This document shows, in pieces, positions 12,001-41,520 of a stretch of DNA of 64,000 nucleotides. Origin of the DNA: Callorhinchus milii (taxonomy: Eukaryota). Numbering within the stretch: the first letter of the stretch is position 1; every line of letters begins with the position of its first letter. Position numbers and translations under genes: made by a program. A model generated the notes under the pieces. The model made no database searches. It was not told the origin of the DNA and saw only the letters and a list, made by a program, of their open reading frames with translations. The stretch spans positions 7,936,001-8,000,000 of the forward strand of contig NW_024704749.1 of assembly GCF_018977255.1 (NCBI RefSeq), written 5' to 3'.

Positions 12001-15000
12001 GAGAAAGTCAAGTACGTGTGGTGTCTAGTGTTTGTATTTAACATAATTCTGTAGCAAGGAGGGGGTAGGGGATGCACAAGAAGAAGTCATTCATTGGTTT
12101 ACATTGGAGAGCAGTGAGTGGGTGGAAAGAATGACACAGAGAGAGATGGTGGAGGCAGATTGTATCTTAAATTCTAGTGGTTGGTACTCTTGCCTTCGAT
12201 TCCCAGAACTGATTCCTTAGGCAAGTTTCCTTACTCCACACGCCTCTGTTTACCTACTATTAAGTAGGAACCCGAATGTTAGTCGATTGGTGGATCACTT
12301 TCCAGGAGTAATAATCCCTCCCAAAAAAAATGTGATCACTCAATCCACAACTGTTTGTGGGACACTGCTGTGCACAATTGGCTGCCGCATTTCTCCCACA
12401 AAATACAGTTACCTTACTTTACATTCTATTGTAATACAGATAATTCACTGAACTGCCTACGTGTTGGAGTGCACGGTTTGCTCAATATATTCTGTGAAGT
12501 GCTTTGAGATGCCTCAACGAAGTAATAAGATGCTATATCAAAGGCAGGGTTATTATTATTATAAGATATCCCCCGAGGGTTGAGAGGGACAGAGAGTTCT
12601 GTAGGATTAATTGATCTTTGGCCGGTTAATCCTCATTGATTTTTTTTTCAGATTGAGTGTGAATACAGATAATCTTGAAGATAATTATTCCTATATGTTT
12701 CACTGAAGTGTCTGTGTCTTGAGCGCGGGGCTTTACTCAAGTGAGTGTTAACGACAGACCTCTCTCCTCCAGGTCGTATCTGAAGTGCTGCATTTACCTG
12801 GCGGAGTTTGAGATGCTGAACATTCCTTATACCACGGAGTCCTTCCACAACAGCGCCAAAGAGGGGATGATTAAAGGCTTGTGGAAGAACCACAACCATG
12901 AACCCAGGGTCAGCAAGAATAGTTCATTCTACAGGGTGTCCACAAAGTCCTCTTACCATCCCGTGTTAAGTGCTCCAAGGCACTGCCCTGCATGAGGAGA
13001 GCTATATAAATGCAAGTTGTTGTCACAAAACACAGCTATGAGACTATGGAGGAGCTGAAACAAGCTGTCGGAGATGCATTTTGCTTTGTCACCCCATCCA
13101 TCCATATTACGGAAGACATTATACTGAACATGGCGACGGATCATTATCTGCCATGAAAATGATGGCGCTCACACACGCACAGCGATCCTCTGTCAGTTAA
13201 ACACTTGTACTTCTCAATACAATTATCATCATTCTTCCACGTTTCAGTTGTTGGTCAGTGCATTGAAGAGAGAGAGAGAAAAAATGCGGGTAACAGGACT
13301 TTGGAGACACCCTGTACACTTGCACACACTGTCCAATTAGCAAACCTATTCAAAAGGGGCGAAACTGAGCAAAGAGAATGATTGTTTTATGTTTTTCCTC
13401 ACAGGCTGTCCGTCTGGTGACTGAGCTGAGCTTGGAGTATGGGGTGTTTGACCAGCTGCTCTGGAATGGAATCCTGCAGAAGCTTCTTGGCTTTAACATG
13501 GTGAATACAGCGGCTTCACACAATCTACATCCTGAACGCTGTGTGCAGGGCGGGTTTTATTTTTGTTTGTGTGTCATCAGACCCACTCCACTATAGAGGG
13601 GGTCACAGCCGAGCCTGACCTCTCCTCACCTGGCTGCCAAACGCACCCTACCAGTAGAAGGTGGTGAAGGGGACAAGGAGTAGGAGCCTGGCTAGTTTTC
13701 ACCTCCCGATCCTGGGGACAATTTAGCCTCTCAATGTAATAAAGGGGAATGTTACATCATCATCTTTTCAAGTCTCTAGGGCTCATTATAAACTAGGGCT
13801 GTTTGGTGCTGCATGTGTTTGTTGTTCTGTGTCTTGCAGAATAACTACCTGAGGAAGGTTCTGATGGCAATCACTGCAGTGCACGCTCTGTGGCAGGTAT
13901 GGCAATGCTTTGCTTTGTAAACACTCTTGCCTTCGTGTGCTGCTGATCACTTTTTATGTCTGTTATATTTAAGAGATGTCCCCAGCTGGCAAATGGCCAT
14001 TGATCTTGTGTGAATATCGAAAGAGCTGTCATATTTCATGGTGCCAATCAGTTCTAGAAATGTCTCAGCAAACGTAACGCCTACCACTGACATGTCTTAG
14101 TTTGGTTAAAGACTAATATGTCTGTGTAATTTCCCCTTCTGACACAAACGCATTCCTAACTCCTTTTCCTAACTCCTCTGACAATGCAGTGGTGCCCCCA
14201 GCACTGCACTGGACTGTGAGCTCAAGTCCCAACATGATCCAGAGGTGAGAGTGCAGCTAGAGAAGCCAAGCAGTTTTACAGATTTGGGTTTGCGGGCAGC
14301 CCTGTCAATCAAATGTTTCACAATCACAAAATTGTAATTTTAGAGCACTCACCTCGCAAGTGAGAGGACCCAGGTTCGATTCCCAGGTTCGATTCCTGGG
14401 CAGGGCGAAACGTTAGGCAAGTTTCCTTACTCCACATGCCTCGGTTTATCTAGCAGTAAGGAAGAACCCAGTTGTTAGTCGGTTGGCGGAGCGCTTTTCC
14501 GGGGGTAATAATCCCTTCAATAAATAAATAATAATTTGGTCACTCAATGCACTACTGTTTGTGGGACGCTGCTGTGCGCAATTGGCTGCCGCGTTTCACC
14601 CACAAAATATGCAGTAAACTCACTTGACAGTACATTCTTTGAAGCTCTTTGAGACTTCTTGAAGTCGTGATAAGGCACTATATCAAGGGTAAGTTTTATT
14701 ATAATTATTATTATCATCCCTGCAGATCCCAAACTTTACCCGAGCATGGCGCAGTGTGATCCTTGCACCCTTCCTCACAGGTATGTTAATCCTCACTTCA
14801 CTTCATTACCATTTTACAAAATGTCAGCAGAACGCAGTGTTTGTATTGATGTTGTCTTGTTTCATTCTTTGACTAGCCTCGAGCCCGCCAAGTCCCAGGC
14901 AGCTGGAGGCCTGTTACCAGTCTTTTGTCCTCTTAATCAAGTAGGTGCTTCCAAATCCATCGCTATCTCTTCCCTCCGCCAACCGCTGTGTTAGCCTATG

Positions 15001-18000
15001 GATTTTTGGGGGATCACCCGATGTCTGACCCATGCAAAAACCCATCACTATGATCAGCCAGGTGTCTGACGCGTGCTTAAGAATATCCAAAGAATATCCA
15101 AACCAGACTGAATTTTTGCCACCCACACATGGAAATTTCCATGTCTAGAGTAGCCTTGTACATATCAGGGAATCTGAATTTTTTATGTGGAGTTTCTTTC
15201 CACGCCCTTGAACTTCTTCCAGGATATCGTTTTGCAGTGTCTGCAGAATCTAAAGAGATTAGATCTAATGTACTCCTCCAGGTTGTTTTTTACCATTTCC
15301 ATCCACACTTTAATGGAGACTATTTTAAGTATCAAAGATAACTTGGTTGATAGAGCTGCTTATCGATTTCCTCTTGTACGTGGGTTGTTTTTTCCACATG
15401 CCTGATTCAATATATGAGTTTATTCCTTGTGAATTTCCCCTACCACCCGTCTTTCTCTCTCCCCCTCCCTCTGCTCTGGAAGGTGCCCGGTTCTCCTCGA
15501 TGTCGACCTGTTTGGCATCGCGAAGCAGTTTGCACAGCTGGAGCTGTCTTCGTTCTCTCTGGGCTGCTTGCTGCTCGTCCCTTATTCAGAGAAAAAAGAG
15601 CAACAAATACAGGTGTGTAAAGTCTGCAACATCGCTGACCGCAGTCCCAGCTAGCTACCCGCACCCATTAAACCACTACCTTTGATTAAAATATATATAT
15701 TATATATATGTGTGTTTTTGATCCATAAAATGAGTGTAGTCCTGTAGCGTATTGATTAGACACTCTCTCTGCAAGCGAGAGGGCCCAGGTTTGATTCCCG
15801 GGCAGGGCAAATCCTTAGGCAAGTTTCCTCCTTACTCCACACGCACACACACACGCCACTCACAAGGAACCTGCTTGTTAGCTGATTGGCGGACTGGCGG
15901 GTAATTATGTTCAGTGTTCCTTTCGTTCTCTTTGACCGAGCCTTCAGCTCCCCTCTCGACTCTCTTCCCCCTCCTCGCTCCCTCCCTTCCCCCCCCTTAC
16001 CCCCCCCCCCTCGCCCCCCCCCCCCTCACCCTGACCATTTCCCCCCTGCTCGGGTCATGACCCAACTGTGCAGCGCCTTGGGACGTCCTCCTGACGTGAA
16101 AGGCGCTTTATAAATGGAATCTTGTTGTTGTTGTTGTTGTTGTTACAACCACTGAAGAGGATGGCTTTTTGCTTCTCTCTGATTTTAAAACCAGAAACCC
16201 ACTCGGGTTCTTGTAAGGAAATGTCAGTGTGATGTGTGCAGGGCTACACAGTGAGGCATTGTGCTTGCTCTCCACAGAGGTTTCTTGTGTCCGTTGATCC
16301 GGTGAAGATTTTGCAGCAGGTTGTGGACCACATGAGCACTGGCGAGGTCGCAGGATTCGGCTCGAAGGTAAAAAGCCGACTCTGACACAGAGAGTTATCA
16401 TTATAACCATCCCACGCACTTGATCTAGCAGCGGCAGCGTCTCAAAGCACTAGAGACAGCAATTGTTGTTTACTGCCCTGGGCAATGGGAGAAACTCCCT
16501 TCTCTCTTCCCTTGAAGGCGAGACAGTGACTGACTGAGACAAGGCACTTGTCTTAGCGATTTGTTGCTACAGTCGCTTCAGTCCCACAGTTCCACCTCGC
16601 CTCCTCCTTTTCCTCCTTCAAGGTTCGTCTCAAGACCCTCCTCTTTGACTGCGCCTTCGGTCACCCTCCTACCACCACTCTCCTTGCCCTCCACTCCTCC
16701 TGATTCCAACCTCCAGCTCAGGTTCAAATCTCTTACGTCATCCCAATGTGAAAGGTGATGTATAAATGTAGTTTGTTGTCCACGCCCCGAAACTCTGGAA
16801 CTCTCCCTCAATCCCTCTGCCTTGCCACTTCCTTCTCCATCTTCAGGTCGCATCTGAAGACCTTCCTCATCGACTGGGTTTGCAGTCACCTTTCCCCTCA
16901 CTCCCTGACGCAGTGTCAGGCTTCACTGCTATCAAGCGCCCTGTGTGAAGGGCGCTCTATAAATACTAGATACTGTTGCTGTCCACGTCATGATGGTTAT
17001 AGTCCTAGCGATGTGTGGGCTGGGTAGAAAAATGGGAAGGTGCAGGAGTATTGGTGAGCTGGCATTGACCCGCTCCTGTGTGTGTTTCTAACTCTGAAAG
17101 ATTACAAAGTTAGTGCTGGATCGGGTGGTAGACGAGAAGCAGTTTGCCAAACTGCTTGGGACTGAATACTTTGCTCTGCTGAAGCAGCACATGATGGAGA
17201 GAAAGCGAGGCCCAGAGCTGGTGGCTTTCCTCATGAGCAGCAACAGGTGAGTGACGCTCACTGAGTCACAAAACAGCATTCAGGGACTTCCTGTCTAATT
17301 ATTCTGATTAATCCAATTTTTTGTTTTGGAGGACTTATTACCCTCAGAAAGCAATCCATCAATCGACTAACAATCCTGCTTACTACTGGGTAAATAGAGG
17401 CTTGTGGAGTAAGGAAACTTGCCTAAGGTTTTTCGCCCCCCGCCCCCACCGATCCCTCCCTAATCTGGAGGATTGTTGACCAGGTCACCAGGAGAAACTC
17501 CCTTTTCTCTTATGTTCACCTGAAGAACCGACACAATTTGATGTCTCATTCAGACCCAAAGGGCTTCCCCCAGTGCCTCGCTGACGTATTAGCCTGGATT
17601 GTGAACTCAAACTTTCAACATCCTTTAGGCTCTGAGGCGAGTGTGCTAACAACTACATCCCACTTGCAATACAGCCTCATTTGGTTGGGTTTAGGTGTGG
17701 TGGGGAAGGTGAGGGGCATGTTTGGGTCGGATGAAAAGAAGTAATTCTTTACGAAGATGGTAATTATTAATCAGAAAAAGTTACCAGGAACAGAAACTGT
17801 GTTTGAATTAATAAAATGATTCCCCCTCAAACACACACTAAGCGTCCTATGACTTCTGCAGCCTGAACGATATTATGCCTTTCGCCATCGAGTGTCTGAA
17901 GCGGGAAGGAAAGAGCGTGCAATCGAACTTCTCCCCAGAGGATATTTTACAGGTAATCTGAGCTTCAGGGAACCAGTGAAAGCCACCCGGATTTTCACAA

Positions 18001-18466: not shown

Positions 18467-19045
18467 GAGCCTCAGAACTTCACAGAAAGAATGTTTCTCT
18501 GCCCACCAACTGAGAAAGTTGACATCACTTTCTGCAGTGTTCATTCGTTGGGTTTGTCTGTTCAATCGTGGGCGTTTTGCGCCAATGTTAATTAAGATTA
18601 ATGACAGATCCTGATGCCCAGGTAACAAACTTTTTATAGAGTTTAAGTATTTTACCAGTTCCTACATTTAAAGTCTCACTATTTTGTAATTGAACTAAAA
18701 GTACATTTAAGTTGTGGGTGGAAGAGTGGATGATGATGATGATATCTGGGCAGACGAAGAGTAGGATGAATTTTGATGTGGGTGATATTTGCTTATGTTG
18801 TGGTCTGAGAGGTACATGCCAACCCTGTGATTTGTATCAGCGGGTCCTCTGCATTTAACAAGTGGGCGAATCAACCGGTGTTATTTGATGAACCCACATC
18901 CGGTTTATAATGTTCTTGGAGTGGTACCATTGTGTTGTATATGACAAACACACAGACAGCCTTAGGCTTTCCATGTGTACAGCTTTTGTATATTTAATTC
19001 AAATGTGTTACTAAACGTATACTCGAGACAAATTACGTTCTTGGA

Positions 19046-19051
19046 AATAAA
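19046..19051 (+). terminator. Candidate KNTC1 polyadenylation signal AATAAA
   Basis: AATAAA about 580 nt after the stop codon; use is not demonstrated. Confidence 0.4.
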
Positions 19052-21200
19052 AACCCTAAAACACACAGTAAAATGTGGGCGAGTACGTGCAGCTATTTAC
19101 ATAAAGAAATGGGAAAATCGATGGAGGGCAAACATTTATTTATTTGTTTTATAAAAGCGAAGACCGTAACAAAGAACTGGCATTTTTACAGAATCTTGTC
19201 AACTTTAGCCAAACTCTCACCCACTCACAGGGACCTCTGTAGCTCACTGTCTAACACTGAGGCTATCTGCTATTTATAACCAGGTTAAAGTGCTGATCCA
19301 CACAATATCGGTTCCTAATAAGGTGAGGTTTCCTGTTGGCAAATTAAATCTTTTTTGGGGGGCAGCTGGGTGTCTGACACATGCGGAAACCCATCACTGT
19401 GCTTAAGAATATTTAAACCAAACTGAGAATTCCATGCATCTCACCTACATGTGTAAATCCCAGAGATAGATTGTTAGAATGGAAAGTATTAGGCGCAGGT
19501 TGGCAAGAACCAAGCCTTAGGGACAGAGTATGCATTAGGGTAACTGCTGGTATCCAACCAGCTAAAACCACATACTACAACAACAACAAGACTACATTTG
19601 TATAGCGCCTTTCACATCGGGAGGACATCCCATGGCTTGCCATTCACAGCACTGCCTAGCAAAGTCAAAAAGTTAAGTCAAATTAAGTGAAAAGCCCCGG
19701 TTTGTCAATCAGCTTAGTGCTAACGTGGTGGCTGAACTCTATGCTCGCCTCCGTTCCACTAATTAAAACTCATCAGCTTATAATTTTCCAGATACAATAT
19801 TAAAGACCATCAAAGGTGACACCTCAAAACAGAGGCGAAGAGAGAGGCTAGCGTCATATAAAGTCAGCAGCTAAATAGTCACTAATTACATCAGTAGCTT
19901 ATTGTTTCAAGAAAAATTGGCTGTAAACAGCCATTGATTTTAGTTCTTTGACATTGGGTGGATTAATGCTGTGCTGCAGGAGTTATGTTGGGGGTGGAGG
20001 GGTCTCTCGCCCTTTTTCAAAAACAATTTTTTAAAAAAGTTCTTGCCAATAAAAATCCAGAAGGAAACATGGGATGTAACTTACAAAACTGATATTTTTT
20101 TAATAACCTGCATCCTGTGGAACGAAGAGTTGGGAAGTTGAACAAGCAAGGAGCTAATTGGAGCCGAGATATGATGAATGAGTGAATGAGGGTCTCGGTG
20201 GCCTGAGGAGAGAGACAGTGAAGGAGCTGGACGATTTTGCGGAGGTGGGGGAAGGCAGAATAGGTAATGATGTGTATGTGGGGTATGAAGTACAAACCCC
20301 TCCTGAAAATAAGCACAGTTGCAAGATTGAGAGAGATAGACATCTTTTTGCTCGGTCTTTATATGATTTCCTATTCTGAAGGCAAAATAGGTCAAGAGGT
20401 ATAGTGATTAGCATCAAATAGCTGCCTTTCAGCATTCAACTTGTGGCCAAACGGCATAGTGTAATTAATTAAGTTAAAGATCCTGTGATACTTGGGAAAC
20501 GAGAAGGGGTTTCATCCAGTGTCCTGGTCAACAATCCCCCAGAGAAATGGATCATTCTCTTTGTGCTTGTTTGTGCCACCTCGCTGCCACCCATTCTCTC
20601 TCTCTCTCTCCCCCGCCCCCCCCCACCCCCGGAAATACACAGGTACTACACTTGATAGCATTTGGCTTTGAGGATTATTATTATTACTGGTGCTTTAAAC
20701 GTGGGTTAGAGAGTTTTAATTGTGCCTCTGCTTGTGTGGAGGGCACAAGACCATTTGTGTTATTCGCAAGCTTCAAATATCAAAACACTGTCCTGCTCAC
20801 TTATCGGGCACCTGCATGCTCTCCTATGCATTTTTTCAACTTAATATTGGCAGTCTGTTTGTTGGAAGCTAATTGCATAATTGTTTGCTTGCGCTTGGAA
20901 AACGTCTCTTACAAAGCAATCAGTTACTTGTAACTTTGTCCTAACTTTAGCCAACTTTGATCTTGCATGTTTGCTGAGGACTGTGTGCTGGCAGGTCACA
21001 TCGCAGATGTGTTTTCTCTAACCCTGTGTAGCTGTAGTATTATAGTAGTATCAGAACTCTGGACCATTGCTGTGCTGCTCATTTACAATCCAAGCCGTAT
21101 TGTGGCTCCTCCCATGATCTATGTTGCAAGATCTGACCTGTATAACTGTTCAGTCAGACGGGTGCAGTGAGCTGTGTAAGGAAGCTTGTACAGTGCAGCA

Positions 21201-22232
21201 ATGAATAACACAACCATCAACTGTAGAATCGCTGACATCCCGTCCATTTATAATGCACCGGCCATCATCATCACCTCCAGCCTGGGCTTAGTGGCCAACG
21301 TGCTGGCTTTGTGGATCTTCTGCTTTTACCTCAAGTCCTGGAAGCCCAACACTGTCTACTCCCTGAACCTGGCCATCGCAGACCTGATGCTCGCTGTGTT
21401 CTGCTTGCCGTTCCGGGCAGACTACTTTGTGCGTGGGAAGAACTGGGTGTTTGGTGATGTGATGTGCCGCATTAACGTGTTCTTAGTCTCCCTGAATCGC
21501 GCTGCAAGTATTGCCTTCCTGATGGTGATGGCGATGAACCGCTACTTCAAAGTCATGCACCCTTACCACAGGGTCAGCAGGATCTCGGGGCTGTGTGCTG
21601 TGAAGGTGTCTTGCCTACTGTGGGCGGAGAGCGTGGCCATTACTGCCTACCTCCTGGCTGAATCTCACGACTTCAAACACGACAGCAAGACCCTCTGCGA
21701 GAACTTCAACATGGACAACCCACTGGGCACAGCATCCTTTATCTGGCACAATGTGGTCTTTATCTTCTTCAAATTCACCCTGCCCATCTGTATCCTCCTT
21801 TTTTCCACCTTCGGCATCGTCTTCAAGATCAGGCAGATGAGCCCTGAACTCAGACACAAGTACAGGAAGACCATCAAGCTCCTTGCCGCTGTGGCGATAG
21901 TCTTTGTCTTGTGTTTCTTGCCGACCAGCGTGGCGCTGATAGCCGTGGTTGTCCACAGGAGGACCAAGGATCTCAATTGTAGGAGCTATGAGGTTTCAGT
22001 CCAGGTGTTTTATAACACTCTGTTCGTCACCTACTTCAACATCGTGCTGGATCCCATCGTTTACTACTTCTCCAGCTCGGTGTTTCAGACCGCCTTCAGG
22101 AGGGCGCTCAACACCTGCCGCTCGGGGGCAGCCACCGACACCGAGGCTCCTTCCCAGGAGGGAGAGCTTGACGACAAGCCGATGAAACGGAGTCCAGTTG
22201 ACTGCCAAACCACCGAAACATTCAGTGACTGA
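21201..22232 (+). CDS. Hydroxycarboxylic acid receptor-like class A GPCR, copy A (343 aa, single coding exon)
   Basis: ATG at 21201 in good Kozak context (gcaATG). Seven hydrophobic segments. HCAR-family motifs: LWIFCF.LKSWKP, LNLAIAD, CLPFRADY (HCAR1-like), W.FGD..CR, TM3 LNR..SI.FL, RYFKVMHP.H, CFLP, TY.N..LDPIVYYFSS. Lies between KNTC1 and DENR like mammalian HCAR1-3. One-to-one orthology cannot be assigned. Confidence 0.93.
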   Translation: MNNTTINCRIADIPSIYNAPAIIITSSLGLVANVLALWIFCFYLKSWKPNTVYSLNLAIADLMLAVFCLPFRADYFVRGKNWVFGDVMCRINVFLVSLNRAASIAFLMVMAMNRYFKVMHPYHRVSRISGLCAVKVSCLLWAESVAITAYLLAESHDFKHDSKTLCENFNMDNPLGTASFIWHNVVFIFFKFTLPICILLFSTFGIVFKIRQMSPELRHKYRKTIKLLAAVAIVFVLCFLPTSVALIAVVVHRRTKDLNCRSYEVSVQVFYNTLFVTYFNIVLDPIVYYFSSSVFQTAFRRALNTCRSGAATDTEAPSQEGELDDKPMKRSPVDCQTTETFSD

Positions 22233-24892
22233 GTGAAGCCAAGGGGAGGTCGGGATCTATGATGTGGGTTGGGACATCACAGGTGGGATTGTTGTGGAGC
22301 GCAGTGGCTCGGTTTCTGGAGGCAATTTGCAGCAGCCACACAGCAAAGTCCCACAAACAAAGATGAAATAAGTGACTGATTTTCTCTGAAGCCAGGACTC
22401 AGCAGGAGAAGCTCCCTTCTCTTTTCCAACACTGTCCCTGGATTTTCAACATCCTCTTGAACAGGTAGACATGCGTTGTGATGTCTTAAGGAGTATACTG
22501 TAAAAGGTACTGACTGTATTTTGTGGGCGAAACACGGCAGCCAGTTACACACAGCAGTATCCCAGTCATGGATTGAGTGACCAATTTTTTTTTCTGGAGG
22601 GATAGCGATCCACCAATTGACTAACAATCCGGTTCCTACTTACTGTTAGGTAAACAGGCGTGTGGAGTTAGGGAACTTGCCTAAGATCTGACCCAGCCCT
22701 GGGTCCTCTCGCTTGCAATGTGAGTGCTTTGCTAGAGGATGTAATATAAATCGCTCGAAATGAAGGGTGTGTTTGTAAACTTCTTTATTTGTCAATCCAA
22801 ACACTCAAAAATCCACCACTCTAAGCAATACAGTTTGTCCCATTCGCAGTATATTTGGGGACGAAACTCAGCAGCCAATTGCACACTATAGGATCCCACA
22901 AACCGTCATGAATTGAATTGACCAATTTTATTTTTTTTAATTTTGTTTTCTTGAGGGATTATTATCAGGAGTGTGGAGTAAGGAAACTTACCCAAGGTTT
23001 GTTGTTTTAATAGGGTTCCACTGTACACAGAGCCATTTGTTGGTTCCAAGTCGGGGATAATTTCTGTAAAAAGCGATGAGAACACTGCCTTATTTACTAT
23101 CTTAGCTTCAATGTATTAAACATCCCAACACGTTTTGGTGAAATTCTTCCCCCATCACACACACACACACACACAGGCAGTGGAGTGAACCACTGCAGCT
23201 CTCTGTCTAACACCGAAGCTGCAAACAGAAGACAACAAATTACACTTACACTTACACAACGCCTTTCACATTGGGAGGACGTCCCGAGACACTGGACAAT
23301 CAAGGACTTGCACCTGAGCTGGGGGTTGGGATCAGGAGGGTGGAGGGTAGGGAGGATGGGGATTGGAGGGTGACCGAAGGCAGGCTGTTGCGGTCCATGT
23401 CCGGGTTAGTACAGTCATTTTGGGGGATTTCTCCCCCAGAAAGCGATCCATCAATCAACTAACAATCCTGCTTGTCGTTGATCTTGGAGTGTTGCCAGTG
23501 TTTTGTATATGACAAATACAGACAACCTGAAGCTTTGCGGGTGTACAGCTTTTGTATATTTCATTCAAATGTGTGACTAAACATGTACTCAAAACGATTT
23601 ACGTTCTTGGAAATAAAAACCCTAAAACACACAATAAAATGTGGGCGAGTACCTGCAGCTATTTACGTAACAAGTGGCAAAACGGATGTCGTACAAACCT
23701 TTATTTGTTTGGTTTATAAAAGCACAGACTGTAATGGAGAACTGACATTCTTTGCAGCATCTGAAAGTGGATCGTGGGGAAAAACTGCTGAGGGTAGTGA
23801 CTGTTTTTTTTATTGGAGTCATAGTAACTGTCCCACATACGGCCTCTTGAACTGGAGAAATGTCAGCCAGGGCACTAGGGGAGTCTTTGATAGAGGTGAA
23901 TGAATGTCGGCAGGGGTGCGTGGGGTGGAGGAGCTCTCATAGCCAACACACGTAAACATACACACACACACACAAATACAAACAGGGAGCGGAAGGAGCT
24001 ACTGCAACTCGCTGTCTAACACTGAAGCTATCAGACAGTTATAACCGGGTTGGTTCCTAATGAGATGAAGGGTTTCCTGCTGGCACAGATCAGGCGCAGG
24101 TTGGTGAGAGCCAAGGCTTGGTGGTCCCCAGAGAATGGACCTCCGAGAGTCTAAACTGCATAACTTGCCATTGAGAGTACTGGCTAAGGAAGTCAAAAAT
24201 GAAGTCGAATGAAGTCAAAAAGCCCCGTTTTGTCAATCAGCACAGTACTAACATGGTGGGTGAACTCTGTGCTCACCTCCTATCTGCTAATTAAAACTCG
24301 TCAGGTTATCATTTTCCAGATACAAAATAAAGACCATCAAAGGTGACAACTCAAAAGAGCGGTGGAGAGAAAGGCTCGTGTCATATATAGTCAGCAGCTA
24401 AATAGTCGCTAATTACTGCGATAGTTTATTGTTTCAAGAAAAGTAGACTGTAAAAAGCCATTGACCATAGTTCTTTGACATTGCGTGTACATTAATGCTG
24501 AGCTGAGGGAATTTGGTTGGGAGTGGTGGGGGGGGCGGTGGTGATGGGTCTCTTACTCTGTCAAAAAACTTGGTTTACATGTTCTTGCCAATAAAAATGC
24601 AGAAAAGAACATGGGATGGAAGTTACAATCAACCACAGGCATGTGCTCCTCAACAGTGACCATTTGGGAAATAGGTGAGAACTTTGTGCAATCACCAGTT
24701 TTGTAACTTTCTCCTCATCTTTCCTTCTGCATTTTGTATTGACAAGAACTTCAATCAGCAGCCCTTCTTATTCATCAGAAAAATGCACCTTAACATGTTG
24801 AAATATCTTGAAAGCGCTGTGCAGGCAGTCACTGTCACTGTGATAGGCTGGTGCGGGGCAGCCATTTTGCACATGATAAAAGCCGTCAGAAT

Positions 24893-25450
24893 ACAACAAC
24901 AACAAAATTACATTTGTACAGCGTCTTTCACATCGGGAGGTCGTCCCAAGGCGCTGGACAGACAAAGTTTCAGACCCGAACTGGGTTTTGGGATCGAGGA
25001 GGATGGAGGGCAGGGGGGCCAAGCAGGGAAATCAAAAGCACGGTCAAAGGGGTCTTGTGATGGGTCTTGAAGGAGGCAACGGAGGGGGCGAGGCGTAGGG
25101 ACTGCGGGCTGGAGTTACAGAGGGAGACAGGTTTGAAGGTGTGGAGGGAGGGATGGGTATGGGCCGGGGTGGGAAGGGGAGATGGGGAGGGCGTAGTAGA
25201 CGGAAGGGCAGAGGCAGCTGAGCGGATCTCCTCAATTTTGGATTCGAAGAAGTCCAGCATCGCCTCACAGTTGGCATTGGAGGTGAGAATGGGCAAGGAG
25301 AGAGGGGGAGGAGCTGGTTGGTGATGGAGAAGAGGAGGCTGGGGTTGTCCTTGGCCTCCAAGTGTGTCTTGGAATAGAACGACAATTTAGTGGAGGTGTG
25401 GAGAGGTAGGATTTGATAAGGTCCAGCCAGATCGGTCCAGCCCGATGGAG
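24893..25450 (-). mobile_element. Internally deleted paralogous copy of the same L2 insertion in duplication unit B
   Basis: Same tail and 5' flank as 30862-32650, but about 1.3 kb of RT sequence is missing (jump near 25100). Confidence 0.8.
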
Positions 25451-27126
25451 CGTTAAGTTTGATTTAAGCCTGGTGCGTTCAGCGGCACCAATAGTTAAAT
25501 TGGTTTGGTTCGTGGGATGTGTGAATTTTTGCTCAACATTTGACTTTATAGAAAAAAGGCAACTTTGACAATGTTGGTTCAATTTATGGCCTGGTGGCTC
25601 AGTGTCTCCACTACCCTTTGTGTGAGGAAACATGTTATGTAACTTGGGAATTGAAACCACCTGTCAAACAGCACCATGGAGGCTATTGACTCATTTGCTT
25701 ACTGTTTCATATAACATAAGGCTATAGACACGCAGAGTGGGGAAGAGCAAGGAATTAAGATGTATGACCTTACAGGAGGAGCAAACACTACAAATGCACA
25801 GAAAACAACTCTGTGAAGGGCTTAGATGTTTTTACTTCATAAGGTGCTACAGCAAAAAGTGAGGATTATTATAATGGGTCAAATCATTTGCATATAATAA
25901 TATAATAATCTATTTATGCGGATGACACCCATCCCTTTCTGTGCCTCCACACTCAACTCCAGGACCATTGCTGTCCTGGTGGATTGTCTGTTGGACATCA
26001 AGTCCTGGATGATGTAACTTTTTCCTATTGATCGTCGATAAGACCGAGGCCCTCCTGCTTGGTTCCTGTCGGCGACTCCTCAGCTCAGGCGCTGATAGCA
26101 TCAATATTCATGGGTGCAATTTGTTGTTGCTGCTGCTGTTTGCGATGGTTAGGACGTTTATTGAGAGAGAGATCAGTGGTTGTCAAACACTAACCACACT
26201 GTAATATTCCACTTCTGGTCCTGTCTACAATGATGAAGCTGTATTTCCAGCAGCTGTAAGACATTGTTCTTCCCTGCTGGCCCCTGGGCTGCTTGCACAC
26301 TGTTTGTGGGGTCCTGAAGCTTAGTGGTTAAAGTACTTGCCTCGCAAGTGAGCAGGTTTGATCCCCGGGCAGGGCAAAATGTTGGGCGAGTTTCCTTACT
26401 CCACACGCCTCTGTTTACTCATTCGCTTATTAGATGTGATGAATGCCCGGAAGGCAGTCTCTGTGACACTTGGGAAATGAGAAGTAGATTTCAGCCAGTG
26501 TCATGGTCCAAAATCCCCCAGAGAAATGGATTATTCGCTTTGTGGTTGTTCGTGGCACTTTGCTGCCCGCCTCCCTCTCTCCTCCCGCCTTCTCTCTCCA
26601 CCGCCCCTTCTCTCGCTTTCTCTCTCTCTGTCTGCAAATACACAATCACTACACTTCACAGTATTTGGCTGTGAAGCTCTTTGAGACACAGGCGCCGTAT
26701 TGGGCATGAGGATTATTATTATTATTACTGGTGGTTTAAGCGTGGGTTACTGTTTTAATTGCGCCTCTGATTGTGTGGAGGGCACAGGACCAGATAATTG
26801 CATAATTGTTTGCGTGCACTTGGAAAACCTCTCTTACAAAGCAATCAGTTATTTATAACTTTGTCCTAACTTTAGCCAACTTTGATCTTGCATGTTTGCT
26901 GAGGACTGTGTGCTGGCAGGTCACATCGCAGATGTGTTTTCTCTAACCCTGTGTAGCTGTAGTATTATAGTAGTATCAGAACTCTGGACCATTGCTGTGC
27001 TGCTCATTTACAATCCAAGCCGTATTGTGGCTCCTCCCATGATCTATGTTGCAAGATCTGACCTGTATAACTGTTCAGTCAGACGGGGTGCAGTGAGCTG
27101 TGTAAGGAAGCTTGTACAGTGCAGCA

Positions 27127-28158
27127 ATGAATAACACAACCATCAACTGTAGAATCGCTGACATCCCGTCCATTTATAATGCACCGGCCATCATCATCAC
27201 CTCCAGCCTGGGCTTAGTGGCCAACGTGCTGGCTTTGTGGATCTTCTGCTTTTACATCAAGTCCTGGAAGCCCAACACTGTCTTCTCCCTGAACCTGGCC
27301 ATCGCAGACCTGATGCTCGCTGTGTTCTGCTTGCCGTTCCGGGCAGACTACTTTGTGCGTGGGAAGAATTGGGTGTTTGGTGACGCGATGTGCCGCATTA
27401 ATCTGTTCCTGTTTTCTCTGAATCGCGCCGCGAGTATCGCCTTCCTGATGGTGATGGCGATGAACCGTTACTTCAAAGTCATGCACCCTTACCACAGGGT
27501 CAGCAAGATCTCGGTGCTGTGTGCTGTGAAGGTGTCTTGCCTAATGTGGGCGGAGAGCGTGGCCATTACTGCCTACCTCCTGGCCGAACGTCACGACTTC
27601 AAATACAACAAGAAGACCCTCTGCGAGACCTTGGACATGGACAACTCACAGGACACAGCATCCGTCATCTGGCACAATGTGGTCTTTATCTTCTTTAAAT
27701 TCACCCTGCCCACCTGTGTCCTCCTCTTTTCCACCCTAAGCATCGTCTTCAAGCTCAGGCAGATGAGCCCCGAGCTGAGACACAAGTACAGGAAGACCAT
27801 CAAGCTCCTTGCTGCTGTGGCGATCGTCTTTGTCTTATGTTTCTTGCCGACCAGTGTGACGCTGATAGCCGTGGTTGTCCACAGAAGGACCAAGGATCTC
27901 AACTGCAGGAGGTATACAATTTCGGTCCAAGTGTTTTACAACACTCTCTTCGTCACCTACTTCAACATCGTGCTGGATCCCATTGTTTACTACTTCTCCA
28001 GCTCGATGTTTCAGACCGCCTTCAGGAGGGCGCTCAACACCTGCCGCTCGGGGGCAGCCACCGACACCGAGGCTCCTTCCCAGGAGGGAGAGCTTGAGGA
28101 CAAGCCGATGAAACGGAGTCCAGTTGACTGCCAAACCACCGAAACATTCAGTGACTGA
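27127..28158 (+). CDS. Hydroxycarboxylic acid receptor-like GPCR, copy B (343 aa)
   Basis: Intact paralog 5926 nt downstream of copy A; 30 amino-acid differences by manual alignment. Confidence 0.93.
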   Translation: MNNTTINCRIADIPSIYNAPAIIITSSLGLVANVLALWIFCFYIKSWKPNTVFSLNLAIADLMLAVFCLPFRADYFVRGKNWVFGDAMCRINLFLFSLNRAASIAFLMVMAMNRYFKVMHPYHRVSKISVLCAVKVSCLMWAESVAITAYLLAERHDFKYNKKTLCETLDMDNSQDTASVIWHNVVFIFFKFTLPTCVLLFSTLSIVFKLRQMSPELRHKYRKTIKLLAAVAIVFVLCFLPTSVTLIAVVVHRRTKDLNCRRYTISVQVFYNTLFVTYFNIVLDPIVYYFSSSMFQTAFRRALNTCRSGAATDTEAPSQEGELEDKPMKRSPVDCQTTETFSD

Positions 28159-30861
28159 GTGAAGCCAAGGGGAGGTCGGGAACTATGATGTGGGTTGGGA
28201 CATCACAGGTGGGATTGTTGTGGAGCGCAGTGGCTCGGTTTCTGGAGGCAATTTGCAGCAGCAAAGTCCACAAACAAGGATGAAATAATTGACTGATTTT
28301 CTCTGAAGCCAGGACTCAGCAGGAGAAGCTCCCTTCTCTTTTTCAACACTGTCCCTGGATTTTCAACATCCTCTTGAACAGGTAGACATGCGTTGTGATG
28401 TCTTAAGGAGTATACTGTAAAAGGTACTGACTGTATTTTGTGGGCGAAACACGGCAGCCAGTTACACACAGCAGTATCCCAGTCGTGGATTGAGTGACCA
28501 AATTTTTTTTCTGGAGGGATAGCGATCCACCAATTGACTAACAATCCGGTTCCTACTTACTGTTAGGTAAACAGGCGTGTGGAGTTAGGGAACTTGCCTA
28601 AGATCTGACCCAGCCCTGGGTCCTCTCGCTTGCAATGCGAGTGCTTTGCTAGAGGATGTAATATAAATCGCTCGAAATGAAGGGTGTGTTTGTAAACTTC
28701 TTTATTTGTCAATCCAAACACTCAAAAATCCACCACTCTAAGCAATACAGTTTGTCCCATTCGCAGTATATTTGGGGACGAAACTCAGCAGCCAATTGCA
28801 CACTATAGGATCCCACAAACCGTCATGAATTGAATTGACCAATTTTATTTTTTTTAATTTTGTTTTCTTGAGGGATTATTATCAGGAGTGTGGAGTAAGG
28901 AAACTTACCCAAGGTTTGTTGTTTTAATAGGGTTCCACTGTACATGGAGCCATTTGTTGGTTCCAAGTCGGGGATAATTTCTGTAAAAAGCGATGAGAAA
29001 ACTGCCTTATTTACTATCTTAGCTTCAATTTATTAAACATCCCAACACGTTTTGGTGAAATTCTTCCCCCATCACACACACACACACACACAGGCAGTGG
29101 AGGGAACCACTGCAGCTCTCTGTCTAACACCGAAGCTGCAAACAGAAGACAACAAATTACACTTACACTTACACAACGCCTTTCACATTGGGAGGACGTC
29201 CCGAGACACTGGACAATCAAGGACTTGCACCTGAGCTGGGGGTTGGGATCAGGAGGGTGGAGGGTAGGGAGGATGGGGATTGGAGGGTGACCGAAGGCAG
29301 GCTGTTGCGGTCCATGTCCGGGTTAGTACAGTCATTTTGGGGGATTTCTCCCCCAGAAAGCGATCCATCAATCAACTAACAATCCTGCTTGTCGTTGATC
29401 TTGGAGTGTTGCCAGTGTTTTGTATATGACAAATACAGACAACCTGAAGCTTTGCGGGTGTACAGCTTTTGTATATTTCATTCAAATGTGTGACTAAACA
29501 TGTACTCAAAACGATTTACGTTCTTGGAAATAAAAACCCTGAAACACACAATAAAATGTGGGCGAGTACCTTCAGCTATTTACGTAACAAATGGCAAAAC
29601 GGATGTCGTACAAACCTTTATTTGTTTGGTTTATAAAAGCACGGACTGTAATGGAGAACTGACATTCTTTGCAGCATCTGAAAGTGGATCGTGGGGAAAA
29701 ACTGCTGAGGGTAGTGACTGTTTTTTTTATTGGAGTCATAGTAACTGTCCCACATACGGCCTCTTGAACTGGAGAAATGTCAGCCAGGGCACTAGGGGAG
29801 TCTTTGATAGAGGTGAATGAATGTCGGCAGGGGTGCGTGGGGTGGAGGAGCTCTCATAGCCAACACACGTACACATACACACACACACAAATACACACAG
29901 GGAGCGGAAGGAGCTACTGCAACTCGCTGTCTAACACTGAAGCTATCAGACAGTTATAACCGGGTTGGTTCCTAATGAGATGAAGGGTTTCCTGCTGGCA
30001 CAGATCAGGCGCAGGTTGGTGAGAGCCAAGGCTTGGTGGTCCCCAGAGAATGGACCTCCGAGAGTCTAAACTGCATAACTTGCCATTGAGAGTACTGGCT
30101 AAGGAAGTCAAAAATGAAGTCGAATGAAGTCAAAAAGCCCCGTTTTGTCAATCAGCACAGTACTAACATGGTGGGTGAACTCTGTGCTCACCTCCTATCT
30201 GCTAATTAAAACTCGTCAGGTTATCATTTTCCAGATACAATATAAAGACCATCAAAGGTGACAACTCAAAAGAGCGGTGGAGAGAGAGGCTCGTGTCATA
30301 TATAGTCAGCAGCTAAATAGTCGCTAATTACTGCGATAGTTTATTGTTTCAAGAAAAGTAGACTGTAAAAAGCCATTGACTTTAGTTCTTTGACATTGCG
30401 TGTAGATTAATGCTGAGCTGAGGGAGTTTTGTTGGGAGTGGTGGGGGGGGGGGGTGATTGTGTCTCTTGCTCTTTGTCAAAAAAAAATTTGTTTTCATGT
30501 TCTTGCCAATAAAAATGCAGAAGAGAATATGGGATGGAAGTTACAAAACTGATATATTAAAAAAAGTGAGTGTGCGCGATGGCTTTGGGTGTGTCTGTGG
30601 AGGGCTGAGAGAGGAGGAATTTTGTGCAATCACCAGTTTTGTAACTTTCACCTCATCTTTACTTCTGCATTTTAATTTTTACTTTACTTTACTTCTGCAT
30701 TTTGTATTGACAAGAACTTCAATCAGCAGCCCTTCTTATTTCATCAGAAAAATGCACCTTATCATATTGAAATATCTTGAAAGCGCTGTGCAGGCAGTCA
30801 CTGTCACTGTGATAGGCTGGTGCGGGGCAGCCATTTTGCACATGATAAAAGCCGTCAGAAT

Positions 30862-32650
30862 ACAACAACAACAAAATTACATTTGTACAGCGTCTTTCAC
30901 ATCGGGAGGTCGTCCCAAGGCGCTGGACAGACAAAGTTTCAGACCCGAACTGGGGATTGGGATCAGGGATGATGTAGGGCTGGGGGGGCTGCAAGGAAAT
31001 CAAAAGCACGGTCAAAGAGGAGGGGGAGGAGCAAGACCATGGAGGGCTTTGAAGGTGAGGACCAGGATCTTGAACTGTCTCCTCTGTGTGAAGGGAATCC
31101 AGTGGAGCCTGGCAAGGATGGGGGTGATAGGGTCAAGGATCCTGATGCGGGAGAGGAGATGGGGTGCAGAGTTCTGGATGACCTGCAGCCTATGGAGGGA
31201 GGAGTTTGGGAGGCTGACCAGCAAGGAGGTGCCTAGTCAAGCCTTGATGTAATGAAGGTTTCGGCAGCCTGTGGTGTAAGACAGTGGTGGAGCCGGGCGA
31301 TGTTACGGAGGTGGGGGAAGGCAGAGCAGGTCATGGCACAGATGTGGTCTAGAAAGGATAGTTGAGGGTCAAACAAGACGCCAAGGTTCCGTACTGGCTT
31401 AGTAAGTTGTAGTGTGCATTCACGGATGGTGATGCTGTCAGGGCCTGAGGTGTGGAGGCGCTGACTGGAGCCGATCAGGAGAGCTTCGGTCTTGTTGACG
31501 TTCAACTGAAGAAAATTAGTTCTTATCCAGGACTTGACGTCTGACAGACACTTTGTCAGGACAGCAGTGATCCTTGAGTTAAGGGTGGAGGCAGACCGAT
31601 AGAGTTGGGTATCATCTGCATACATGTGGAAGTTGACCCCATGTCCGCAGATGATGTCACCAAGAGGGAGCATATAGATATTGAAGACAAGGGAACCAAA
31701 GACAGAGCCCTGAGGAACACCGCACGGGGGATAGAGGAGAAACCTTTTCTAGAGATGAAGTGGAGGCGGTGTGAGAGGTACGGTCTGAACCAGTCAAGGA
31801 TAGAGCCGTGAAGGTTGAAGTGAGAGGAGAGGCGGTGGTTGATGTTCCAGTGATCGATGATGTCGAAGGCAGCAGAGGAGTCAAGGAGGACGAGGAGGCA
31901 GAGGGAGCCCTGATCGCAGATGGACAGAATGTCATTTGTCACCTTGACCACAGCTGTTTCTGTGCTGTGGGCGGCACGGAAAAGGATTGCAGGGGTTTGT
32001 GATGGGAGTGGCGAGAGAGGAAGGAGCGAAGCTGGGAAGCAACAACTCGTTCCAGGACTTTGGAGAGGAAAGGTAAGTTGGTGTTGGGGTGGTAGTTTGA
32101 AAGTAGAGATGGGTCCAGGGAGGGTCTTTTAAGGACAGGAGTGATAAAGGCAGTTTTTTTAATGTGGTGGGAACAGTACCAGTAGACAGAGAGAGGGTAA
32201 TGATGTCTTTGAGTAGAGGGGCAAGGAGGTGGAGCTGGGAGGTAAGGAGAGTACGAGGGATGGAGTCCAGGGAGCAAGTAGTCGGTTTCTTGCAGGTTAT
32301 AGTGGTGGTGAGAGAGGAGTGGGAGACAGGTTCAAAGGTGTGGAGGGAGGGATGGGTATGGGCCAGGGTGGGAAGAGGAGATGGGGAGGGTGTAGTAGAC
32401 GGAAAGGTAGAGGTAGCCGAGCAGATCCCCTCGACTTTGGGTTTGAGGAAGTCCAGCATCGCCTCGCAGTTGGCATTGGAGGTGAGGATGGGCGAGGAGT
32501 GAGAGGGGGAGGAGCTGGTTGGTGATGGGGAAGAGGAGCCTGAGGTTGTCCTTGGCCTCCAAGATTGTCTTGGAATAGAACGACAATTTAGTGGAGGTGT
32601 GGGTGGAGAGGTAGGATTTGATAAGGTCCAGCCAAATCGGTCCAGCCCGA
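30862..32650 (-). mobile_element. 5'-truncated, decayed L2-clade LINE (reverse transcriptase fragments)
   Basis: Minus-strand fragments [11 protein letters not shown] (RT YADD), [36 protein letters not shown] and ITPILARLHW; (TTG)n tail near 30862-30880; frameshifted. Confidence 0.9.
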
Positions 32651-34359
32651 TGGAGCGTTAAGTTCGATTTAAGCCTGGTGCGTTCAGAGGCACCAATTGT
32701 TTAATTGGTTTGGTTTGTGGGATGTGTGAACTTTTGCTCAACATTTGATTTTATACAAAAAAAGCAACTTTCACAATGTTGGTCTAGACTGGGAGCTCAA
32801 GTCCTAATGTTGGCTTGAACCAAACTGAGCGAAGAATGGCTGTCCAGGGGGAAGAGTAGAGATATCAAATGAATACAGTCCATTGACTCTGCTCTGCCAG
32901 TGTATTAGATCATGGCAGATCTTTCAGTCCCATCGCATTCTCTATGCCTTCCCTCTTCCACTTCATATTCTTGCATTCCAAGTGTCTGTCCATCTCTCTA
33001 TTTACTATCCCAATTTATGGCCTGGTGGCTCAGTGCCTCCACTACCCTTTGTGTGAGGAAACATTTTATGTAACTTGGGACTTGGAACCAGCTGTCAAGC
33101 AGCGCCATAGAGGCTATTGACTCATTTGCTTACTGTTTCATATGACGAAAGGGTTACAACATGCAAAGTGGGGAAGAGCAAGGAATTGAGATGGATGTCG
33201 TTACAGGAGGAGCAAACACGACAAATGCACAGTCATTACACTGATCAGAGAAAATAATTCTGTGAAGGGCTTAGATGTTTTTACTTCATAATCTGCTATA
33301 GCCAAACATGAGGATTATTATAATGGGTCAAATCGTTTGCACATAATAATATAATGATAATATATTGATGCGGATGTCATCCAACTCTTTCTGTGCCTCC
33401 ACACTCAACTCCAAGACCGTTGCTGTCCTGGTGGATTGTCTGTTGGACATCAAGTCCTGGATGATGTAACTTTTTCCTTTTGAACGTCGATAAGACCGAG
33501 GCCCTCCTGCTTGGTTCCTGTCGGCGACTCCTCAGCTCAGGCGCTGATAGCATCAATATTCATGGGTGCAATTTGTTGTTGCTGCTGCTGTTTGCAATGG
33601 TTAGGACGTTTATTGAGAGAGAGGTCAGTGGTTATCAAACACTAACCACACTGTAATATTCCTCTTCTGGTCCTGTCTACAATGATGAAGCTGTATTTCC
33701 AGCAGCTGTAAGACATTGTTCTTCCCTGCTGGCCCCTGGGCTGCTTGCACACTGTTTGTGGGGTCCTGAAGCTTAGTGGTTAAAGTACTTGCCTCGCAAG
33801 TGAGCAGGTTTGATCCCCGGGCAGGGCAAAATGTTGGGCGAGTTTCCTTACTCCACACGCCTCTGTTTACTCATTCGCTTATTAGATGTGATGAATGCCC
33901 GGAAGGCAGTCTCTGTGACACTTGGGAAATGAGAAGTAGATTTCAGCCAGTGTCATGGTCCAAAATCCCCCAGAGAAATGGATTATTCGCTTTGTGGTTG
34001 TTTGTGGCACTTCGCTGGTGCCCCTCCCTCTCTCCTCCCGCCTTCTCTCTCCACTCCTGTATCCCTCTCTCTCTCTGTCTGCAGATACACAGTCACTACA
34101 CTTCACGGTATTTGGCTGGGAAGCTCTTCGAGACACGGGCCCCGTATTGGGCATGAGGATTATTATTATTAATATTACTGGTGGTTTAAACGTGGGTTAG
34201 AGTATTAATTGCACCTCTGCTTGTGTGGAGGGCACAGGACCAGATAATTGCATAATTGTTTGCTTGCGCTTGGAAAACGTCTCTTACAAAGCAATCAGTC
34301 ACTTGTAACTTTGTCCTAACTTTAGCCAACTTTGATCTTGTATGTTTGCTGAGGACTGT

Positions 34360-34860
34360 TTTCAGAACTCTGCAGCTCGTGTACTGTCCCGCACCAGGCT
34401 TCGTGACCACATCACTCCCACCCTCGCTCGCCTCCACTGGCTCCCCATCCCCCAGAGGATCGATTTCAAGATCCTCATCCTCACCTACAAGGCCATTCAC
34501 GGCCTCGCTCCCTCCTACCTCTCCGACCTACTATCCCCCTACCTACCTACCTACCCGTACCCTCCGTTCTTCTGGCTCCGGTCTGCTCCACATCCCCCGC
34601 CCCAACTGCCCTACCATCGGTGGCCGGGCCTTCAGCCTCTCAACCCCGAGGCTCTGGAACTCTATCCCCCAGTGCCTTCGCCTTCGCTTCCTCCCTTTCC
34701 TCCTTCAAGGCCGGTCTCAAGACCTTTCTCTTTGACCTTCAGCCTTCAGCTCCCCTCTCGACTCTCTACCCCCTCCTCGCTCCCTCCCTACCCTCCCCTC
34801 ACCCTGACCATTTCCCCCCCAATGCTCGGGTCCTGACCCAACTGTACAGCGCCTTGGGAC
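34360..34860 (+). mobile_element. L2 3' fragment bridging the deletion in HCAR copy C
   Basis: Encodes [57 protein letters not shown], a typical L2 ORF2 C-terminus, followed by 3'UTR cut off at cagcgccttgggac. Confidence 0.85.
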
Positions 34861-34987
34861 GCTCAACACCTGCCGCTCGGGGGCAGCCACCGACACCGAG
34901 GCTCCTTCCCAGGAGGGAGAGCTTGAGGACAAGCCAAGCAAACGGAGTCCAGTTGACTGCCAAACTACCGAAACGTTCAGTGCCTGA
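34861..34987 (+). pseudogene. HCAR-like copy C remnant: only the C-terminal tail and 3' flank remain
   Basis: Encodes LNTCRSGAATDTEAPSQEGELEDKPSKRSPVDCQTTETFSA*, matching the tail of copies A and B. The 3' flank is homologous to about 35225. The 5' flank is present up to about 34358, but the rest of the CDS is replaced by an L2 fragment. Confidence 0.9.
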
Positions 34988-35854
34988 GTGAAGCCAAGGG
35001 GAGCTCGGGAACTATGATGTGGGTTGGAACATCACAGGTGGGATTGTTGTGGAGCGCAGTGGCTCGGTTTCTGGAGGCAATTTGCAGCAGCCACACAGCA
35101 AAGTCCCACAAACAAGGATGAAATAAGTGACTGATTTTCTCTGTCAGCCAGGACTCAGCAGAGAAGCTCCCTTCTCTTTTCCAACACTGTCCCTGGATCT
35201 TCAACATCCTCTTGAACAGGTAGACTTTGTTGGTAAGTTGTTTGCTCCCCAGGAGATATATGTATCTCAAACAGCTGATTTCAAGCACTCTGAGGCACTT
35301 CATCCATGAAAGGCTCCATGTAAATGCAAGTTGTTGTTGCGTTGACATGTTATGATCTGTCCAGCGCCTTGGGACATCCTCCCGTCGGGAAATGCACTGT
35401 ACAAATGTAATCTTGTTGTTATTGTATGTGTGTGTCTGTTTCTCTCTGTATTTGCGGGTGTCTCTATGTGTCTCTCCTGTCTGAGTGTATGTGTTTTGAG
35501 TGTCTCTCCATGTTTGTGAGTGTCTGTGTGAATGTGTATGTTTTGAGTTTCAATGTCTATCCATTTGTCTCTCTCCTCTGTATGTGGTTGTGAGTGTCTC
35601 TATGTGAATGTCCGGGTCTGTATGTGTGTGTTTGAGTCTCTCTGTGTCTATGTATTTTGTTAAAGAAGCAATTTTTTTGTAATAATTGATATTTTCTCAT
35701 GTTCAGTTTTTATCAATAAAATGAAAAACTGTAGATTGGCAGTAAAATGTTCCTCAATAGCATCAATCAACCCCCACCCCCCTGCAAGTTTCCCTGCACT
35801 TTGGCCCAGGTTATAACACTGGTTTTCAGCTGACCCACTGTTGGAATAATATAT

Positions 35855-41400: not shown

Positions 41401-41520
41401 GAGATTTTATTGATCACGATTCTATTGTTGGGTCACTTTGATTTTTTTAAATACATATCCGTTGCGGCTCTGCGGCAGACACCTGTGTTTGTAAGAAAGG
41501 ACCCCGGCGGGACAAAGGCT

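Follow-up and report, generated by a model that had tools for sequence, protein, structure and literature searches.

We analysed a 64,000-nt stretch from the genome of Callorhinchus milii, the elephant shark (contig NW_024704749.1, positions 7,936,001 to 8,000,000 of the forward strand), hereafter the window, in whose coordinates all positions are given. Between KNTC1 and DENR it contains two intronless open reading frames (ORFs) of 343 codons each, encoding the hydroxycarboxylic acid receptors (HCARs) that we call copy A and copy B. Both proteins belong to class A of the G-protein-coupled receptors and matched Pfam PF00001 (7tm_1) above the cut-off, at 144 and 148.5 bits. Their closest relatives of solved structure were HCAR1-3 (21 entries, E values from 5e-69 to 2e-59; the next family, 1e-32), and the best match for residues 1-191 of copy B was human HCAR1 (E=3e-45). 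An AlphaFold model gave seven long helices; its predicted local distance difference test score was 60, which is low confidence, and it was used for topology alone. The carboxylate anchors R3.36 and Y7.43 are present in both copies as R100 and Y278. Primate HCAR genes are also flanked by KNTC1 and DENR (PMC13237431). The structure matches and the neighbouring genes together uphold the HCAR identity and locus proposed in an earlier note on this stretch. KNTC1 lies 5' and DENR 3' of the genes here, and the reverse holds in primates (PMC13237431); because the order of the neighbours relative to the direction of the genes is reversed, the HCAR genes are inverted relative to those of primates. The HCAR units comprise the following features.

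21201..22232, + strand: HCAR copy A, a single coding exon for 343 amino acids with HCAR1-type pocket residues and a CENF motif
27127..28158, + strand: HCAR copy B, 343 amino acids, with pocket-lining L93, F96, T168 and L169
21330..22082, + strand: divergent core of copy A (codons 44-294), holding 64 of the 65 coding differences
21663..21752, + strand: second extracellular loop (ECL2) and top of transmembrane helix 5 (TM5) of copy A, where A and B differ at 11 residues and where a third haplotype, described below, has all five of its listed private changes
20867..21200, + strand: 5' flank of copy A, homogenised with 26792-27126 (6 mismatches in 334 bases)
26792..27126, + strand: homogenised 5' flank of copy B
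22233..24400, + strand: 3' flank of copy A, homogenised and 1.1% different from 28159-30315
28159..30315, + strand: homogenised 3' flank of copy B
18911..20098, no strand given: partial copy of the repeat unit at its outermost edge, unconverted and differing by 15-19% from the internal copies

Between copies A and B, 30 of 343 residues and 65 of 1032 bases are different. Eleven of the residue differences lie in codons 155-180 (ECL2), three at codons 262, 264 and 265 in the third extracellular loop (ECL3) and three at codons 87, 93 and 96 around transmembrane helix 3 (TM3); the ORF positions and these residue counts agreed exactly with the earlier note. Mismatches numbered 6 in 334 aligned bases of the 5' flank, 0 in 129 bases of codons 1-43, 64 in 753 bases of core codons 44-294, 1 in 150 bases from codon 295 to the stop and 24 in 2157 bases of the 3' flank, confirming that near-identical flanks (1-2% apart) surround a divergent core. 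Homogenisation reaches codon 43 on one side and codon 295 on the other and leaves the seven-transmembrane (7TM) core divergent, so that a peak of divergence within homogenised flanks, of the type known from opsin genes, is present.

Synonymous divergence in the core was 32 in 169 sites (dS 0.22), twentyfold that of the 3' flank (p=2e-23), and the overall ratio of non-synonymous to synonymous divergence (dN/dS) in the core was 0.26. Because the core dS is far above the flank value, the contrast between A and B is not purely at the protein level; the 7TM core as a whole is older than the DNA around it. The outer, unconverted margins of the unit differ from the internal copies by 15-19% (uncorrected), and since the core dS matches these margins the duplication appears to be old. 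The pair had been described as young, which fits the flanks only, by way of conversion; from the sequence comparison we infer an old duplication that probably underwent repeated exchange. Identity in the spacers is patchy (0-14 mismatches per 100), which fits conversion tracts of differing ages. We considered and rejected one recent duplication of the entire unit, as it cannot yield a core dS of 0.22 beside flanks 1% apart.

The residue differences are concentrated in ECL2, where 11 of the 29 core differences fall in 26 of 251 positions (p=0.0013 after correction for the window scan). Changes in ECL2 were 13 non-synonymous to 1 synonymous, against 19 to 31 in the rest of the core (p=0.0005).

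A third HCAR unit, absent from the earlier note, lies at 33011-35225; its whole divergent core has been lost.

33011..35225, + strand: broken third copy, consisting of the upstream flank to 34359, the last 131 coding bases (34857-34987) and the 3' flank
34360..34856, + strand: repeat insertion in the third copy, replacing the equivalent of 20985-22101, likely the 3' end of a long interspersed nuclear element (LINE)
31236..31748, - strand: fragment of a LINE reverse transcriptase (RVT_1, E=1e-12) in the spacer that follows copy B

The inserted 497-base repeat had no Pfam match of its own. It matches 31010-31176 at 75%, and because this DNA lies just 3' of the reverse-transcriptase fragment, the insertion is likely a LINE 3' end. 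The search of the assembly for a donor or further HCAR copies gave none beyond A, B and the 131-base remnant, and tblastn detected no HCAR remnant upstream of 18911.

Variation was examined in contigs of four sequencing runs (X2, X3, X5 and X6) from one study with the same species label, four of the 14 runs in which this stretch was represented; the contigs were aligned to copy A. In contigs of this kind rare variants are lost and bubbles may be merged, depth does not give copy number, and the comparison covers 40 of 470 variant rows. At the ECL2 marker sites we scored the A letter, a third type, and letters that were neither (B-like). Depths for A, B-like and third type were 2.7, 8.5 and 10.7 in X2; 0, 6.2 and 16.9 in X3; 8.5, 16.8 and 8 in X5; and 0, 0 and 37 in X6. 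The third type shares D161N, L175Q, I198V, F204L, G205S and I210L with copy B. Its listed private changes (D157E, G176I, A178Q, F180I and N184D) are confined to ECL2 and the top of TM5, with E157 and D184 occurring in part of the third type only, in X2 and X3.

The core contig of X6 over 21507-21898 differs from the window by 21 letters in 392 bases, 18 of which are listed. At most three letters are left over, so of the other 17 A/B sites no more than 3 can be B-like in this contig. The contig is a mosaic in which residues 168-170 of copy A are probably retained. The depth of 37 is close to the 40.5 of the shared 5' stretch, suggesting that the third type is present in every copy in X6. In X3, A letters were present in TM3 (7.8 of a depth of 18.7) and none were seen at the ECL2 markers; a further mix in TM5 was found in X2 and X3. 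Like X3, two proteins from the databases (P0100 and P0101) are of A type in TM3 but not at ECL2; in them the A-type TM3 is combined with ECL2-ECL3 of B type, and they may be real recombinants or products of collapsed assembly. The N-terminus of P0101 differs and is probably mis-predicted. The 24 listed non-core contigs differ from the window at 46 of 9047 bases (0.5%), and the two core contigs at 21 of 223 and 21 of 392. At window position 21159, all four sampled runs carry an extra G, as does the flank of copy B; the shorter run of copy A could be explained by a rare allele or by an error in the assembly.

Old haplotypes common to both loci, together with mosaics, were therefore found in these four runs, a combination of the type known from the major histocompatibility complex (MHC). 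It is very improbable that the pair is an assembly artefact in which two alleles of one locus were placed in tandem. The flanks are 99% identical over 2.2 kb and the older database models are A/B mosaics that could reflect assembly collapse, as such an artefact would have it, but large insertions and 6-19% substitutions distinguish the spacers, and three ECL2 types occur in X2 and again in X5, too many for a single diploid locus if a run represents one animal. On that condition a one-locus artefact is ruled out, and with it the haplotype artefact that the earlier note had named as a possible refutation. The idea of two fixed pockets fared otherwise, since the types vary between samples, X3 having no A marker at ECL2 and X6 only the third type.

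In a tree of 100 rows, A and B formed a group (support 100/100) whose sister was a set of 68 shark and ray HCARs, and the clade of 70 rows formed by A, B and the sharks and rays had support of 100/98. The tree left out two partial proteins and contained no OXER1 or GPR31 sequence, there being none among the protein matches listed; placement apart from those families therefore leans on synteny. It does not date the duplication, because conversion alone also makes copies group by species. The earlier suggestion of an independent cartilaginous-fish duplication agrees with the lineage-specific cluster of A and B, but duplication itself is normal in the group: 19 of the 22 shark and ray species among the matches have at least 2 HCAR copies under 90% identity, and up to 8, which indicates that HCAR duplication is the norm in cartilaginous fish. 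Copy B has a branch length of 0.083 against 0.017 for copy A; the shark majority at the A/B sites gave no sign of faster evolution of B (15 sites favour A as ancestral, 10 favour B and 5 are ties; p=0.42). No other chimaera HCAR was present among the listed matches of two protein searches (98 of 98 in one and the best 120 of 507 in the other).

The stingrays and devil rays each have 5-8 copies of HCAR (within proteins P0002-P0068), a large expansion of which there is no mention among the literature matches listed. A second conserved HCAR-like clade exists in some sharks and rays (P0070, P0071, P0073 and P0074; support 100/100). No separate gene for this clade was found in the elephant shark genome, where A and B were the best matches.

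Pocket residues were mapped by alignment to human HCAR1, with residue roles taken from PMC12040280. Both copies keep R71, R99, E166, L264 and Y268 of HCAR1 as R72, R100, E167, L274 and Y278. They depart from human HCAR1 at H261 (Y271), Y75 (F76), R79 (K80) and S167 (N or T), and copy B also at F168 (L). The features of an HCAR1-type pocket, namely R2.60, a basic residue in the first extracellular loop (ECL1) and E45.51, are present in both copies as R72, K80 and E167; the CESF motif and H7.36 are replaced by CENF in A, CETL in B and Y271. With R72, K80 and E167 in place, neither copy has the features of the HCAR2/3 type, which comprises the ketone, niacin and 3-hydroxyoctanoate receptors (L or V at 2.60, W or S in ECL1 and a small residue at 45.51). 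These residues put both copies on the HCAR1 side of the published selectivity switch, HCAR2 having L83, W91 and Y87, and R71 of HCAR1 blocks a sub-pocket of synthetic HCAR2 agonists, a statement that concerns those agonists and not beta-hydroxybutyrate (PMC12040280). Because both copies keep R72, K80, R100, E167 and Y278, lactate-like acids are favoured over ketone bodies as ligands, and the residues point to a pair of predicted lactate-type receptors. The leaning of the earlier note towards ketone bodies was not borne out, as no residue in either copy points to ketones.

Four of the A/B differences (V93L, V96F, N168T and F169L, from A to B) lie at pocket-lining positions, in agreement with the proposal that the copies differ near the ligand pocket. 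Positions 93, 96, 168 and 169 match the HCAR2 contacts L104, L107, S179 and F180 (contacts from PMC10682194), and A and B differ at 4 of 10 HCAR2 contact positions (p=0.019). At the equivalent of position 107, copy B has F, as does human HCAR3; human HCAR2 has L. Of 67 shark and ray HCARs, 62 retain F169, and mutation of F168 in HCAR1 lowers activity (PMC12040280); for both reasons L169 of copy B may shift or reduce function.

These differences bear on the possibility that A and B are two fixed receptors with different metabolite pockets, one perhaps for ketones, kept apart by selection against conversion in the manner of the red and green opsins. The divergence peak is classic for such a system, copy B departs from A at the equivalents of four HCAR2 contacts and has the F of HCAR3 at 107, and elasmobranch tissues use ketone bodies (PMC4810751). 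However, R72 and K80 place both copies on the HCAR1 side of the switch, both zebrafish gpr81 duplicates respond to lactate according to a review (PMC12844162), and the A marker of ECL2 is missing from X3 and both the A and B markers from X6. Variation in the types between samples itself argues against two fixed receptors, and we regard this explanation as unlikely.

The explanation that we favour, and hold to be somewhat probable, is a pool of old HCAR haplotypes that is shuffled by conversion across two loci and kept by diversifying selection. An old tandem duplication of the HCAR unit would have been followed by repeated conversion or unequal crossing over, which would have wiped divergence from the flanks and both protein ends. 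Such exchange would also move blocks of TM3, ECL2 and TM5 between the loci and so build mosaics, and selection for variety, rather than for one fixed A plus one fixed B, would preserve the old blocks. All variants are predicted to bind small hydroxy or aromatic acids via R100, R72, E167 and Y278 and to signal through Gi; the B block (V93L, V96F, N168T and F169L) may shift potency or breadth, and the third block would mainly alter the exposed end of ECL2. Diversifying selection is favoured for two reasons: exchange reaches both ends of the 7TM core and crosses the core while the types survive, and ECL2 is again the place where the third type has its private changes. According to a review, a divergence peak and conversion-built haplotype variety are both signs of selection (PMC3924837).

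A stronger form, which we put forward only tentatively, is MHC-like balancing selection on a vertebrate metabolite receptor, with ancient ECL2/TM3 cassettes swapped between two HCAR loci. If this were true, individuals would differ in the acids that they sense (host lactate, or gut-microbial and dietary hydroxy and aromatic acids) or, alternatively, in the surface presented to a microbial antagonist, and the multi-copy arrays of sharks and rays would represent the same process in other lineages.

Several results weigh against a pool maintained by selection. The dN of ECL2 (0.24) is about equal to the core dS (0.22; p=0.85), and its comparison with the local dS of 0.07 gave p=0.28. Because the dN of ECL2 is not above the core dS, a dN/dS ratio above 1 in ECL2 is not demonstrated, and the positive selection on ECL2 that the reading in the earlier note implies is unproven. 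Among 67 shark and ray HCARs, no regions vary more than ECL2 and ECL3, whose entropies are 1.57 and 1.65 (0.6-1.0 elsewhere). In 45 nearest-neighbour shark and ray pairs (13 within and 32 between species, excluding three pairs with unnamed proteins and pairs more than 25% different), ECL2 evolves about twice as fast as the rest, equally within and between species (p=0.77), and 3 of the 45 pairs exceed the ECL2 ratio of 5.9 between A and B. With a wider set of 17 pocket positions, 4 differ and the enrichment has p=0.12. The variation data consist of contigs from four runs of one study, whose records do not state whether each run is one animal, and the uniformity of X6 for the third type implies that carrying two types is not essential.

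Several of these points fit neutral reshuffling, in which three old paralogs (A, B and the now-broken copy) diverged from one another with an ECL2 that drifted freely and recent conversion or unequal crossing over in the flanks started to mix them, with drift now homogenising the array and core divergence by itself slowing conversion. The equality of ECL2 dN and core dS, the looseness of ECL2 in all cartilaginous-fish HCARs compared, the overall core dN/dS of 0.26 and the apparent homogenisation of X6 agree with such a process, and the third locus, having lost its divergent core, could be the source of the third type. On the other hand, conversion reaches codons 43 and 295 yet spares the 7TM core, and the block mosaics within the core imply many exchanges without loss of types. 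The A/B share of differences in ECL2 (11 of 29) also exceeds the pooled shark share of 0.175 (p=0.007, with the pairs overdispersed); the ECL2 cluster is part general tolerance and part upper-tail excess. Neutral mixing keeps some weight because a ratio above 1 was not demonstrated and a third locus once existed, and we consider it a possible but doubtful account of the locus.

Compared with known systems, the elephant shark pair resembles human HCAR1 (GPR81, the lactate receptor) in its KNTC1-DENR interval and five retained pocket residues, but HCAR1 is one gene and the elephant shark has at least two variable copies whose ligand is predicted only. HCAR2 and HCAR3 of apes are likewise tandem duplicates at the same locus that differ at TM3 and ECL2 pocket positions, including 107 (PMC13237431), but their HCAR2-type L83 and W91 are absent from the elephant shark copies. 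The ape genes have fixed diagnostic residues and their authors argue against conversion (PMC13237431), whereas the elephant shark has homogenised flanks and types that vary between samples. Shark and ray HCARs form a multi-copy sister group in which R72, K80, R100, C166 and E167 are invariant (67 of 67), but they are 44-57% identical to the elephant shark proteins and 61 of 67 have P after CE, where A and B have N or T. The red/green opsins, the RHD/RHCE peaks and MHC-type pools share a divergent coding block in homogenised surroundings with mosaics (PMC3924837); in contrast, the elephant shark gene is a metabolite sensor with just two live loci.

HCARs are drug targets. If the favoured pool of haplotypes is correct, natural variants at a few pocket and loop positions would offer a ready test of how acid selectivity changes, a metabolic sensor would be evolving like an immune receptor, and the A/B pair of the reference, like the gene models in databases, would be one draw from a variable pool. 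If neutral reshuffling is correct, the locus would be an ordinary tandem array caught in the middle of homogenisation. HCA1 orthologs in cartilaginous fish have been published (PMC6532841), in a set that may include the A and B genes, as have independent HCAR duplications in apes (PMC13237431). No account of the elephant shark HCAR array, of its polymorphism or of shark HCAR arrays was found among the literature matches listed.

The neighbouring genes that define the interval are as follows.

8875..15612, + strand: exons of the upstream neighbour KNTC1, containing all 7 matches to the Rod_C domain in the genome
37238..37372, - strand: DENR-like exon (SUI1 domain), downstream neighbour

The latter is likely DENR rather than another SUI1 gene, as judged from synteny and a motif. 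Further downstream, a long tandem repeat of short GT-rich units at 41422-43088 gives rise to spurious ORFs of 500 amino acids. The ATG-started parts of two long + strand open frames of 350 and 155 codons at 51270-53110 had no Pfam match; these frames are possibly exons of the next gene.

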